Below, one piece after another: positions 6,473 to 9,592 of a stretch of DNA of 53,981 nucleotides. The notes below the pieces were generated by a model, which made no database searches, had not been told where the DNA came from, and was given only the letters and a program-made list of their open reading frames with translations. The translations under genes were made by a program, and so were the position numbers. Numbering within the stretch: the first letter of the stretch is position 1; each line of letters opens with the position of its first letter. The stretch comes from a virus (lineage: Duplodnaviria > Heunggongvirae > Uroviricota > Caudoviricetes): the IMG/VR virus record IMGVR_UViG_2529292919_000008; one strand, written 5' to 3'.

Positions 6473-6799
6473 TCATAACACCGTCGGACAACGCAAATCG
6501 TAAATCAGCACGGAAACAGAAAACGGCAGCTCCCCCTGAAGCAGTTCTTCCCGCTCCGCAAGATCCGGATTCCGGTACAGCATCCCGGTCAGTCGCATGG
6601 CAGCCCCCTTCATCCGGGTTAATGCCTCGCCCGGGATCAGTTCACCGTCCTCACGGATCACTTTATCCCGGCTGCCCTGAATGTAGGCCAGCAGCACGGC
6701 GGTAGCCTGACGAACCTTGTCCATCAGCATGTCATCATCCGCGTCATGGTCGACACGCAGATGTGCCTTGATCTCTTCCAGTGTCAGTAATGCCGTCAT
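6473..6799 (-). CDS. gp6-like head-tail connector protein
   Basis: 108 aa; N-terminus MTALLTLEEIKAHLRVDHDADDDMLMDKV is typical of this family; synteny. Confidence 0.55.
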   Translation of the reverse strand: MTALLTLEEIKAHLRVDHDADDDMLMDKVRQATAVLLAYIQGSRDKVIREDGELIPGEALTRMKGAAMRLTGMLYRNPDLAEREELLQGELPFSVSVLIYDLRCPTVL

Positions 6800-9381
6800 T
6801 TTCCGCCTCCTGCATCCCGCCCACGTTTTGCAGCCAGGGTCCAGGCTGATGAATGAGCTTCTCCGGGTTTATCTTCGGTCATACTGTTGCAGTGCCACAG
6901 CGAGCCCCCCCACGTCACCGTATCGCCGGGGTGGTAGGTTTCACCGGCTCTGAACACACCGCGGTAGAGCATCACCGGCAGGGAAAATGTTTTTTCCGTA
7001 CGCTGGCCACTGCTCTGCCGGACCACCACAGAGAACAACCGCTCACCCGTCATGCTGACGTCAATATCCGCCACCCCGTCAACCAGGCATTCCCATCCCC
7101 GCATCCCGTGCGTTTTTTCATACGCCCGCCAGAGTCCGCCCTGGTGTGTGGCATACGTGCCCCGGGGAAAGGATTTTTGATCGTCAATGGCGGGGAGTAT
7201 TTCCAGAGCCGTGGCATCACGCCCGTCCTGCGGAGCCGGCAGGGCACTCACCGCATCCAGAACCGCCTTCTGCAGAACATCCGGATCGTAGTCACGACCA
7301 TCACGCGGAACATGAATATGGCTTACCGCCTCCTTCACCATCTGTTCAAGCATCGGACGCACATCATCCGGGGTGAGACTTTTACCGTCTGCCGGCTGCG
7401 GAATATTTGCGACCGCATCATTCACCGCCTTCTGCAGAACATCGGGATCATAGTCACGACCGTCGCGCGGAACAGGGATATGGCTTACAGCCTCCTTCAC
7501 CATCTGTTCAAGCATCGGACGCACATCATCCGGGGTGAGACTTTTACCGTCCGCCGGCTGCGGAATATTTGCGACCGCATCATTCACCGCCTTCTGCAGT
7601 ACTTCCGGATCGTAGTCACGACCATCACGCGGAACAGGGATATGGCTTACAGCCTCCTTCACCATCTGTTCAAGCATCGGACGCACATCATCCGGGGTGA
7701 GACTTTTACCGTCCGCCGGCTGCGGAATATTTGCGACCGCATCATTCACCGCCTGCTGCAGTACATCCGGATCATAATCACGACCATCACGCGGTACCGG
7801 AATGGCCCCCACAGCGTCATCCACCATCGCCTGCAGAACCGGACGCACCTCATCCACCGTCACATGCTTCTGTAATACCGCCGACAGGGAAGTCAGTTTC
7901 TCTTCAAACGCTTGTGCCTGCGAGGCCATCTTCCCCTCAAATGTGCGCTGTAAATCCGCCAGCACTGTGGAGAATTCTTCTCCCAGTGCACGAATAATGG
8001 ACAGTTCCCGTTCCGTCATTTTCTCAGTATCCCCCCTGAACATCGCTTTCACCGCATCATGCTCTGTTTCACTGATTGCCTTATTACCGTCAGATGCGCC
8101 GTCAGGCAGCTGTGATGAAACTGTTTTCCCGGCAGACGAGAACGGATCCTCACGGGCATCACGACGGGACAGCGCCTCCAGACTGTAGTTCTGCTGCTGA
8201 AGATACAGTGCATCACCGCCGGCCAGGGGCGGCAGGTTCTCCCGTTTACGGGCCTCATTGGGCGTGAGAAGCGTATTTTTCACCGCATCCCCCAGCGTTT
8301 TCATGCGCCGCTCACTGTCCATTCTCAGCAGCGTGGTGACATCAAATTCTGTACTCTCGTTTTCCCCCGTTTCCAGCGCCTCATCCAGTAACAGTTCAAT
8401 GGACTCAATCAGCGTCTGCAGGCACTGGGAATAATACTGCTGCTCCAGCGCCTCCACGTTGTCACTGGAAGGCGGTTGTCCCACGCCAATCTTGTAGGCC
8501 GGGACACGGAACACCGAACAGACAATTTCAGCGGTCATCTTCAGTTGTTCCACCGTCTGCGCATCCACAGGTGAAAACGTCGTGGGGTTGTATTTTGCCC
8601 CGTTGCTCAGAATGGCCGTTTTCCCCGCATTTTCGCCTGTATACCCGCTGTCCCAGTTGCTCTTCAGTTTTTTCGCATTTTCTTCCGTAATACTGCCGGG
8701 GATCTCAATCACCCCGGACGGCCTGCCACCATTTCTGAAAAAAGACGTCGAATTTTCCTGAATATGATGCCCCTGCGTGGCCGCCAGCCCGGCGGCATAC
8801 ACCGGCGGCAATCCTATAAGCGGATGAAAAAAACAGTTAAACCGGTCGTGGATCACTTCCCGGGCAGGCACCGTCACCGCCTCCGTGATCCCGCAGTTCC
8901 GGTCCGGCGTGATGCGGTAGAACACCTCGCCGTCATCCGCCACCAGAGGTTCAACCCGGCTCCAGTCCAGAATACGCAGTTCTTTGATCTGCCCCCGGGC
9001 ATTACGGATTTTCAGCACCACCGTATTGCCGTGACGCAGTTTGGCGTTCAGCCACAGTTCAAAAAACTGGATGCGGTTCTGCTGGGCGTTGGGACGACGA
9101 CAGAGGCGGGCAATATCCCCCCGGCGCGTTTCCCTGCGTATCCCATGCGCATCCGTCTGCATAAGACGCAGCCGCATTTTGGCGATATCCTGGGATATCA
9201 GCGAAATACATGCAAACACCGCATGAAAGGAGAGGACGGCTTCAGGATCGGCTTTCACGCCCTGCTGCCAGGCGCCGGAAAAGGGCTCAGCCACCGCCTG
9301 AAACAGGCTGGTCCAGCCCACCTCTCTTACGTCACGTCCTGATTTCTGGTTTTTTCGGGTTCGCCGTAAAAGGTTCCACAT
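6796..9381 (-). CDS. HK97-family portal protein with about 450-aa C-terminal extension carrying tandem 27/54-aa repeats
   Basis: Portal signature block FFRNGGRPSGVIEIPG...WDSGYTGENAGKTAILSNGAKYNPTTFSPVDAQTVEQLKMTAEIVCSVFRVP. This is followed in frame by repeats (DGRDYDPDVLQKAVNDAVANIPQPA / DGKSLTPDDVRPMLEQMVKEAVSHIPVPR) and a Trp/Gly-rich terminal domain. Start chosen at ATG 9381 (GGAG 8 nt upstream); the open frame extends to 9477. Confidence 0.7.
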   Translation of the reverse strand: MWNLLRRTRKNQKSGRDVREVGWTSLFQAVAEPFSGAWQQGVKADPEAVLSFHAVFACISLISQDIAKMRLRLMQTDAHGIRRETRRGDIARLCRRPNAQQNRIQFFELWLNAKLRHGNTVVLKIRNARGQIKELRILDWSRVEPLVADDGEVFYRITPDRNCGITEAVTVPAREVIHDRFNCFFHPLIGLPPVYAAGLAATQGHHIQENSTSFFRNGGRPSGVIEIPGSITEENAKKLKSNWDSGYTGENAGKTAILSNGAKYNPTTFSPVDAQTVEQLKMTAEIVCSVFRVPAYKIGVGQPPSSDNVEALEQQYYSQCLQTLIESIELLLDEALETGENESTEFDVTTLLRMDSERRMKTLGDAVKNTLLTPNEARKRENLPPLAGGDALYLQQQNYSLEALSRRDAREDPFSSAGKTVSSQLPDGASDGNKAISETEHDAVKAMFRGDTEKMTERELSIIRALGEEFSTVLADLQRTFEGKMASQAQAFEEKLTSLSAVLQKHVTVDEVRPVLQAMVDDAVGAIPVPRDGRDYDPDVLQQAVNDAVANIPQPADGKSLTPDDVRPMLEQMVKEAVSHIPVPRDGRDYDPEVLQKAVNDAVANIPQPADGKSLTPDDVRPMLEQMVKEAVSHIPVPRDGRDYDPDVLQKAVNDAVANIPQPADGKSLTPDDVRPMLEQMVKEAVSHIHVPRDGRDYDPDVLQKAVLDAVSALPAPQDGRDATALEILPAIDDQKSFPRGTYATHQGGLWRAYEKTHGMRGWECLVDGVADIDVSMTGERLFSVVVRQSSGQRTEKTFSLPVMLYRGVFRAGETYHPGDTVTWGGSLWHCNSMTEDKPGEAHSSAWTLAAKRGRDAGGGK
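7240..7830 (-). repeat. In-frame coding tandem repeat, unit about 162 bp, about 3.5 copies
   Basis: Near-identical DNA units recur at about 7321, 7483 and 7645 (e.g. ggcttacagcctccttcaccatctgttcaagcatcggacgcacatcatccggggtgagacttttaccgtc...). Confidence 0.7.
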
Positions 9382-9592
9382 TCGCCATGCTCCGCATCTC
9401 GTTTCTTTTTCTGACCTGCCGGACGTCGCACCGTGATGTACTCCGCCTTTCCCAGGCGAACCAGCACCTCCGCACACGGCTGTGCCACATCACGGATATC
9501 CCCGGCCCGGGCATCATGCGTGCCCTGCAGATATCGGATCTTTGCCATAACCTGTTACGGGAGGCGCACGCCTCCCGTCCTCCTTATCAGAC

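Follow-up and report, generated by a model that had tools for sequence, protein, structure and literature searches.

A portal protein with a long C-terminal extension as the very likely product of a one-base fusion between two neighbouring phage genes

Why should the portal gene of a tailed phage run on, in one reading frame, through hundreds of codons of tandem repeats and a Gly/Trp-rich end? The question is raised by IMGVR_UViG_2529292919_000008, a caudoviral IMG/VR record of 53,981 nucleotides (nt; here called the window, always at its full length), in which an earlier note, made from the sequence alone, had described a portal protein with a repeat-containing C-terminal part of its own. We find that the open reading frame (ORF) in question is almost certainly the fusion, by one extra G, of an HK97-family portal gene with the gene of a neighbouring protein, for which we use our own name, X (residues 455-861). 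The minus-strand ORF that had been placed at 6796..9477 is indeed present, and the ORF listing and its translation give 893 amino acids (aa) counted from a GTG at 9477. The true start is likely to be the ATG at 9381, which gives 861 aa; GGAG lies nine bases upstream of this ATG, and the translation upstream of MWNLLRR..., with which the shorter protein begins, has no match in any relative. Since near-identical genes are annotated from the same start in RefSeq, and since phrog_2271 matches the 861-aa protein from end to end (positions 1-859 of 859), the gene was taken as 6796..9381.

The N-terminal half had been recognised correctly as an HK97-type portal. Pfam Phage_portal (PF04860) matches aa 54-382 at 6e-81, with 272.5 bits against a cutoff of 39.1 and covering profile positions 2-321 of 321, TIGR01537 (portal_HK97) scores 349.4 bits against a cutoff of 112.05, and the solved portals 9lbn_H (2.7e-28) and 8cez_A of HK97 (4.4e-20) align to aa 43-420. 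Judged by these matches, residues 1-420 form a complete HK97-family portal, and the whole fold of known portals of this type (HK97 gp3, PDB 8CEZ and 8FQL; gp1 of PDB 9LBN) finds its counterpart there. Such portals have about 400-450 aa, and the stand-alone portals of the same lineage have 444-456 aa in the split IMG/VR loci described below, whereas the window protein carries 407 aa more, from another gene. In this it resembles the P22 portal, gp1, which with its C-terminal barrel also far exceeds the core fold, the extra part being C-terminal and interior; the P22 barrel, however, continues the portal itself as an integral helical part, while the extra part of the window protein is independently encoded in most relatives. 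PF28083.1 is a precomputed match for many partial E. coli portal-X entries, and the fragments carrying it suggest that it belongs to the portal part, not to X.

Residues 455-861, read in the earlier note as part of the portal, belong by their homologues to a family of their own. Used as a query, the entire extension returned chiefly near-identical, partial entries from E. coli. Residues 421-861, compared with 1.84 billion cluster representatives (50% identity level), gave 5561 clusters at E ≤ 1e-3 and 624 at E ≤ 1e-30. Among the best 150 clusters most matches are 240-550 aa long, the terminal domain is found in 147, always no more than 50 residues from the C-terminus, and a portal domain is also present only in the E. 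coli type and in P0210 (1237 aa). X has its own conserved start, M455: stand-alone members begin with a Met and the motif, MNERELSLIKVLGEEF against MTERELSIIRALGEEF at aa 455-470 of the window, and this N-terminal helix, of the form MxERE(L/I)S..(K/R)..GEEF, matches P0121, P0126, P0133, P0299 and P0271. At the other end lies a conserved domain of about 140 aa with invariant G, W, Y and C columns (alignments A1 and A3). The window protein matches phrog_1289 at 4.8e-195, and stand-alone X proteins span the full length of this PHROG family, which is labelled 'portal protein'.

RefSeq and NCBI call the stand-alone proteins (P0270-P0434) 'phage gp6-like head-tail connector protein', 'phage portal protein' or hypothetical; they match no NCBIfam model, nor any Pfam model of a connector or portal, and the labels were probably carried over in annotation from fused genes or from neighbours. 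The name given by PGAP, 'gp6-like head-tail connector', coming with no NCBIfam or Pfam connector match, was dropped as evidence, and no fusion of X to the head-tail adaptor Ad1 was found among 150 representatives or 80 loci. The stand-alone X proteins of Salmonella phage FSL SP-016 (AGF88086), Stx2 phage 1717 (gp60), BP-4795 (ORF59), PAJU2 and IME307 have the same motif, repeat type, terminal domain and genomic slot as the window's X; they differ in being separate polypeptides, whereas the window's X is fused in frame through a tract of six Gs. Literature searches on the extension, on phage 2851, BP-4795 and PAJU2 virion proteins and on neck fibres found nothing on X. The earlier interpretation is therefore partly supported: its portal identification was right, as was its remark that the extension is not a standard portal feature, and its framing of the extension as the portal's own C-terminal part was wrong, the neighbour gene X being what is read in frame.

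The junction between the two genes shows how this reading arises. E. coli-type loci occur in two states only, with five or six Gs (G5 and G6). In the G5 state (...GATGTTCAGGGGGATACTGAGAAAATGACGG) the portal ends in ...AMFRGILRK and its stop codon overlaps the ATG of X; the G6 state is the G5 sequence plus one G, with which the portal reading frame passes into that of X six codons ahead of the X ATG. In the window the ancestral portal stop (TGA, 8016..8018) is now out of frame, the final codons of the portal tail (aa 421-454) have likewise left the ancestral frame, in which the protein ended in ...KAMFRGILRK, and this old end is still legible, as MFRGILRK and a stop, in the +1 frame. When the junction is aligned to FSL SP-016, E. 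coli has one extra base within the G run. Other lineages have AGAGGA where E. coli has the G run, so that the mutable G tract is specific to the E. coli lineage.

G6 is carried by the window, by phage 2851, by a prophage of E. coli NCTC86 and by seven IMG/VR loci, and in YYZ-2008 a single portal ORF is annotated across the whole gene. Stx2 phage 1717 and BP-4795 have G5 and two annotated genes, a 454-aa portal and an X of 407 or 461 aa. The exact 48-nt G6 junction is present in 752 complete E. coli genome records and the exact 47-nt G5 junction in 367 out of about 958 that have this junction type, and strains E2863 and E2855 have both, at different loci. A frameshift separating portal and extension, which the earlier note had named as fatal to its reading, was thus found in the G5 alleles, but the fused G6 allele is real and frequent. 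P0210, present in three assemblies whose contigs reach 119 kb, is a second, independent portal-X fusion, with another junction (…PLFTELF-MLSQRD…) and repeats of another type.

The fused allele is also varied. In a sample of 25 E. coli-type loci, for which 800 flanking bases were compared, G6 lies on at least four haplotypes differing at 3-7% of these bases, and the nearest neighbours of one G6 allele (L069) are G5 alleles; either the fusion is old, or it has arisen repeatedly. Loci with identical 800-bp flanks always share the same G-tract state, and the nearest cross-state pairs are 24-32 nt apart. Since no pair with identical flanks differs in state the G5/G6 switch is rare, and fast phase variation at a contingency locus was ruled out on the same ground. 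The ratio of nonsynonymous to synonymous substitution rates (dN/dS) in the terminal domain of X is 0.12-0.22 among G6 alleles, 0.23 for the single G5-G5 pair compared and 0.21-0.47 for G6-G5 pairs; X is under purifying selection, and it is intact in the fused alleles. Comparison of repeat copy number among relatives, a check proposed in the earlier note, showed that X lengths step by 54 aa (162 bp): leaving out one truncated G5 copy, they are 353, 405-407, 461 and 569 aa in G6 and 299, 353, 407 and 461 aa in G5, with 353, 407 and 461 aa shared by split and fused alleles. Copy number differs for instance among L065, L054, L057, L086 and L079, and in lineages outside E. coli the number of repeats, each of 22-29 aa, ranges from about 2 to over 25. 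Phage 2851, which carries G6, is the International Committee on Taxonomy of Viruses exemplar of Pankowvirus pv2851, and its host is E. coli O157:H7 strain CB2851, from human faeces. This phage was isolated as infectious particles, and the fusion is thus probably compatible with a working phage.

In most relatives X is a gene of its own in a fixed place. The gene is very common: 93 phage records contain near-identical DNA, among them phage 2851, YYZ-2008, Stx2 phage 1717 and many Stx1a and Stx2c phages, and of 5426 complete E. coli genomes 1246 have the gene, with a median of 5 matching places in each (a figure inflated by the internal repeats). With a profile of the terminal domain we collected 80 IMG/VR loci, 66 of them split, 7 fused and 7 in which the available stretch has no portal; among the 73 related loci with a portal, X is a separate gene in 66, always between the portal and head-tail adaptor genes. 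The split loci encode an X of 294-521 aa and have a 4-nt ATGA overlap in 62 cases, and Ad1 starts no more than 10 nt from the X stop in 77 of the 80. FSL SP-016 has a 451-aa portal, a separate 347-aa X (ATGA overlap) and then Ad1; Rhizobium phage RHph_X2_26 has a portal, a separate X of 473 aa and then a head-tail joining protein; and Stx2 phage 1717, BP-4795 and Pseudomonas phage IME307 have portal, separate X and adaptor in that order. PAJU2 has a 74%-identical X homologue, with portal and adaptor features annotated on either side, and divergent loci (35-55% identity) retain capsid, portal, X and then adaptor and/or head-closure genes. A second scan of viral contigs, made with a collagen-tailed member, gave mostly unrelated collagen-like matches, only L087-L091 being usable.

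The wider module has its own order. Intact relatives encode HNH, TerS, TerL, a protease-capsid fusion (645 aa), a 73-aa ORF, the portal, Ad1 and the head closure protein Hc1, followed by a gp10-like protein, the tail terminator, the major tail protein, the tail chaperones and the tape measure. This capsid-before-portal order, which the earlier note had pointed out, holds for the whole lineage; in the window, where a Mu-like prophage splits the capsid gene, the part of that gene next upstream of the portal is just its 3' fragment. Moraxella phage Mcat1 and Burkholderia phage vB_SBP33, whose portals have 41-46% identity, also have capsid then portal, with the connector directly next and no X; from its absence in these modules, X is an accessory of this type of head module rather than a core assembly factor. 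The 73-aa ORF lies in a different frame from the portal start that it overlaps, and an ORF of similar size occupies its position in FSL SP-016, Mcat1, vB_SBP33 and IME307, even in modules without X.

X itself divides into a long N-terminal helix, an acidic repeat shaft and a terminal domain (Table 1). The near-identical 162-bp DNA repeats reported before were recovered by Tandem Repeats Finder at 7262..7794, with a period of 162, 3.3 copies, 95% matches and no indels. At the protein level the in-frame 54-aa repeats stand, but they consist of 25-aa units (DGRDYDP...) alternating with 29-aa units (DGKSLTP...) and not of 27 + 27 aa; there are eight units from aa 507 to about 745, a degenerate one at aa 507 preceding the regular ones, and each is a short helix followed by an IPxPxDG turn. 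AlphaFold2, run on aa 455-861 with 59 sequences (alignments shallow in diversity and mostly from Enterobacterales), predicts a 47-residue N-terminal helix (X positions 3-49; predicted local distance difference test score, pLDDT, 75-85), eight short helices between Pro-rich turns at low confidence (pLDDT 40-58) and a confident all-beta C-terminal domain (pLDDT 83-92). This last domain, the Trp/Gly-rich one of the earlier note, comprises the final 143 residues (aa 719-861) and has a pLDDT of 87.7.

The profile and structure checks that had been proposed for the extension led, besides the X family, to a CBM5/12-like beta domain at its end. The fold of the terminal domain matches solved CBM5/12 domains, and from this fold the domain may bind a sugar or polysaccharide. 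Pfam CBM_5_12 (PF02839) scores 29.8 bits, above threshold, in the homologue P0125, and a precomputed PF02839 match is present on many X homologues. In Pseudomonas members (IME307, L109 5292..6296; PAJU2, an isolated phage) the first CBM-like module is missing and only the second is kept, and the terminal domain is therefore itself modular. At least four Gly-X-Y triplets follow the terminal domain in 34 of 115 representatives, which hints at X trimers. Compared with PDB chains by sequence, the extension matched only designed helical repeats and, weakly, CBM-type domains, and Pfam matches to TetR_C_35, DUF4244 and Glycos_trans_3N within the repeats were below threshold and regarded as spurious. 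Phage fibres with CBM5/12-type or collagen-like tips are known from the Agrobacterium phage 7-7-1 tail fibre (9RKV), Pa193 gp47 (9B45) and the receptor-binding complex of Milano (8FQC); they share with X the fold of the tip and a shaft whose length varies, and about 30% of the X family have short Gly-X-Y tails. Their genes, however, lie in tail or baseplate modules or elsewhere, whereas X lies between portal and adaptor and is coupled to the portal.

As a whole the observations are best explained, with a probability of about 0.65, by a portal and an accessory fibre, X, fused by an extra G. X is probably a structural accessory of the portal vertex and, if structural, somewhat more apt to sit outside the head than inside it. 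Portal, X, Ad1 and Hc1 form a chain joined by overlapping or closely spaced stops and starts, and the other members of this chain are 12-copy neck parts in necks of the HK97 and SPP1 type; this coupling argues for a part of the portal vertex that is present in few copies, not for a capsid decoration. An anchoring helix, a variable shaft and a CBM-type tip together favour an external fibre that binds polysaccharide. The place presumed for X has functional analogues on heads and necks in the fibritin whiskers of T4, the gp8.5 head fibres of phi29 and the lactococcal neck passage structure.

In G5 phages the tract, which lies six codons from the end of the portal gene, forms a Shine-Dalgarno-like sequence upstream of the X start, and X would be made by translational coupling to the portal gene. 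The extra G of G6 moves the portal frame into that of X, so that translation passes the retained ATG (M455) and ends at the X stop, and every portal subunit would carry X covalently on its C-terminus. Some free X might still arise from the retained AGGGGGG and ATG, at a lower expected level, with the spacing at 12-13 nt and translational coupling lost. The N-terminal helix, of about 47 conserved residues, is probably the attachment element; it is followed by the acidic shaft of helix and Pro-turn repeats, which varies in steps of 54 aa, and by the distal tandem CBM5/12-like domain, of a kind known from phage fibre tips, and X would be a low-copy fibre of the portal vertex, at about portal stoichiometry, with its tip binding polysaccharide. 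The comparisons establish that two genes are involved, that the G tract is polymorphic, how X is built and folded, where its gene lies, that relatives can lack it and that it is under purifying selection; we infer the presence of X in the virion, its copy number, its binding of glycans, its location and its internal initiation.

Several points weigh against this explanation. The literature search located no experimental datum on X for any phage, and the window protein itself reaches only 19.1 bits for CBM_5_12, against a threshold of 26.2. In all solved portals the C-terminus lies inside the capsid, in the crown and pointing into the head, and fused X should therefore start inside the head, which fits an external fibre poorly; with a net charge of -20.6 (-17.9 for the shaft alone) X would be awkward, though possible, beside packed DNA. 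That X has stayed intact in divergent fused alleles may point to a function inside, and recombination between prophages could keep X intact in these alleles with no selection on the fused form. Fused X might be an internal passenger (12 × 44.5 kDa being, on a rough estimate, a small share of the head volume), it might be trimmed by the prohead protease, the 35-aa tail might thread out beside the portal, or X may be natively internal.

The last of these is an explanation in its own right, in which X is a head protein docked on the portal crown, in the position of SPP1 gp7 and Mu gpF or in the manner of the P22 portal barrel, the fusion simply making a natural contact covalent; X might even exit with the DNA and bind peptidoglycan by its CBM-like tip. 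The two independent fusions, that of the E. coli type and that of P0210, suggest that in the particle the N-terminus of X lies next to the C-terminus of the portal, and together with the frequency and divergence of fused alleles in which X is under purifying selection they speak for an internal X. So does the genomic slot, since the gene directly after the portal typically encodes a minor head protein of the MuF family, which binds the portal (PMC5576092), and the window's Mu-like prophage has this portal-then-MuF arrangement. X and the MuF proteins (SPP1 gp7, Mu gpF) are also alike in having an N-terminal anchor and a variable C-terminal domain. Yet they share no sequence or profile similarity: neither MuF domain (PF04233/PF06152) gives a Pfam match in X, hhalign assigns a probability of 0.1% to the pair of X and the window's MuF protein, on which homology was rejected, and X has a helical, fibrous build that ends in a CBM-like tip. 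The tip domain, a shaft that varies in length and the Gly-X-Y tails are traits of external fibres, the negative charge of X counts against a place inside, and related head modules (Mcat1, vB_SBP33) do without it. We regard a natively internal X as rather unlikely. Other alternatives concern not the place of X but the fused allele. It may be a loss-of-function frameshift in decaying prophages, its long ORF functionless as such: a single-base indel in a homopolymer is its origin, many E. coli lambdoid prophages are defective, the gene is annotated as a pseudogene in some records (rows H97 and H112), and the capsid gene of the window's own prophage has been destroyed by a Mu-like insertion. This becomes improbable when G6 is the commoner state (752 against 367 records), when it is spread over at least four haplotypes 3-7% apart in which X is intact, at a dN/dS of 0.12-0.22, and when it is the allele of phage 2851. 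The G tract might instead be a recoding site, with +1 slippage of the ribosome or of RNA polymerase on GGGGGG letting a single allele yield both the plain portal and portal-X at a constant ratio. A tRNA-Gly could re-pair perfectly one base forward on G6, the run is preceded by the rare codon AGG, and the +1 frame stops after 4 further codons at the ancestral stop, giving the normal portal end. The zero-frame codons at the tract, read directly, are however TTC AGG GGG GAT, with no canonical X XXY YYZ slippery heptamer, no stimulatory element was identified (no structure search was made), six Gs are a short run for transcriptional slippage, and G5 alleles and all lineages outside E. coli function as two plain genes; we consider recoding very improbable. 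An error of sequencing or assembly in the homopolymer or the repeats would be conceivable given that some technologies often misjudge homopolymer length, but both alleles occur exactly in hundreds of complete genomes, sometimes in different prophages of one genome, and in independently sequenced phages (2851, 1717 and BP-4795), which reduces its likelihood almost to nothing. The G5/G6 polymorphism is real and not a sequencing artefact.

The copy in the window has a further history. Window 46656..49783 and 1..10249 are collinear with phage 2851, overlapping by 5 bases, and between them lies an element with TG...CA ends flanked by a 5-bp repeat (Table 1); from the collinearity, the ends and the repeat it follows that a Mu-like prophage transposed into the protease-capsid gene. 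This lambdoid prophage is unable to make its own heads. The same insertion junction was found in none of 5426 complete E. coli genomes, and the end of the Mu-like element is found elsewhere in such genomes, for example in phnJ and eutC. The major tail protein of the lambdoid prophage (4548..5399, minus strand) has a C-terminal immunoglobulin-like domain (Pfam Ig_3, Ig_2 and I-set), which is likely to be a second surface-adhesion module of the virion gene set.

Table 1. Positions in the window of the portal-X gene, its parts and neighbours, and the Mu-like prophage
Feature	Position	Strand	Remarks
Head-tail adaptor Ad1 (gp6-like)	6473..6799	-	Start overlaps X stop
Fused portal-X ORF	6796..9381	-	861 aa + stop; mechanical ORF reaches GTG at 9477
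X terminal domain, aa 719-861	6799..7227	-	All-beta, two CBM5/12-like modules, ends KRGRDAGGGK
Acidic repeat shaft, aa 507-718	7228..7863	-	Eight alternating 25/29-aa units; core 7262..7794
X N-terminal long helix, aa 455-506	7864..8019	-	MTERELSIIRALGEEF conserved in stand-alone homologues
ATGA	8016..8019	-	ATG 8017..8019, X start (M455); TGA 8016..8018, ancestral portal stop
Portal C-terminal tail, aa 421-454	8020..8121	-	Acidic, Ser-rich
G6 tract AGGGGGGAT	8031..8036	-	Shine-Dalgarno-like sequence upstream of X start
Portal proper, aa 1-420, HK97 family	8122..9381	-	PF04860, TIGR01537, PDB 9lbn_H and 8cez_A
Small conserved ORF, 73 aa	9327..9548	-	Between capsid and portal genes, overlaps portal start
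Protease-capsid fusion gene, 3' fragment	9593..10249	-	Pfam, PHROG, alignment to phage 2851
Target duplication AGTAC, 5 bp	10245..10249 and 46656..46660		Flanks Mu-like prophage
Mu-like prophage, 36,406 bp, TG...CA ends	10250..46655	+	Inserted in capsid gene
Mu-type repressor	10562..11209	-	
Mu-like transposase	11628..13670		
MuB-like ATPase	13689..14582		
Mu portal (Portal_Mu)	26754..28349		
MuF (Phage_Mu_F)	28336..29502		
Mu protein I	30206..31375		
Protease-capsid fusion gene, 5' fragment (Peptidase_S78)	46656..47941	-	

The portal-X fusion is common and natural, with a portal part of the HK97 family and an X that is a widespread but uncharacterised neighbour. We put forward only tentatively, as a possibility that may well prove wrong, that X represents an undescribed and very widespread class of low-copy portal-vertex fibre and that the G tract sets whether it is free or covalently tethered to all twelve subunits of the portal. 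If this is true the class would extend over siphophages of Proteobacteria, in thousands of sequence clusters now wrongly named 'portal' or 'head-tail connector', a single-base difference in the G tract would give two heritable virion types in E. coli lambdoid and Stx phages, and an HK97-type portal would tolerate a C-terminal passenger of 45 kDa. A glycan-binding fibre at the portal vertex would be an overlooked determinant of host or mucus adhesion in Stx phages; an internal X would be a new kind of portal-bound head protein. The correct reading of the portal-X gene affects the annotation of thousands of genomes, and the natural G5/G6 pair offers a ready test of what a portal C-terminus can carry.

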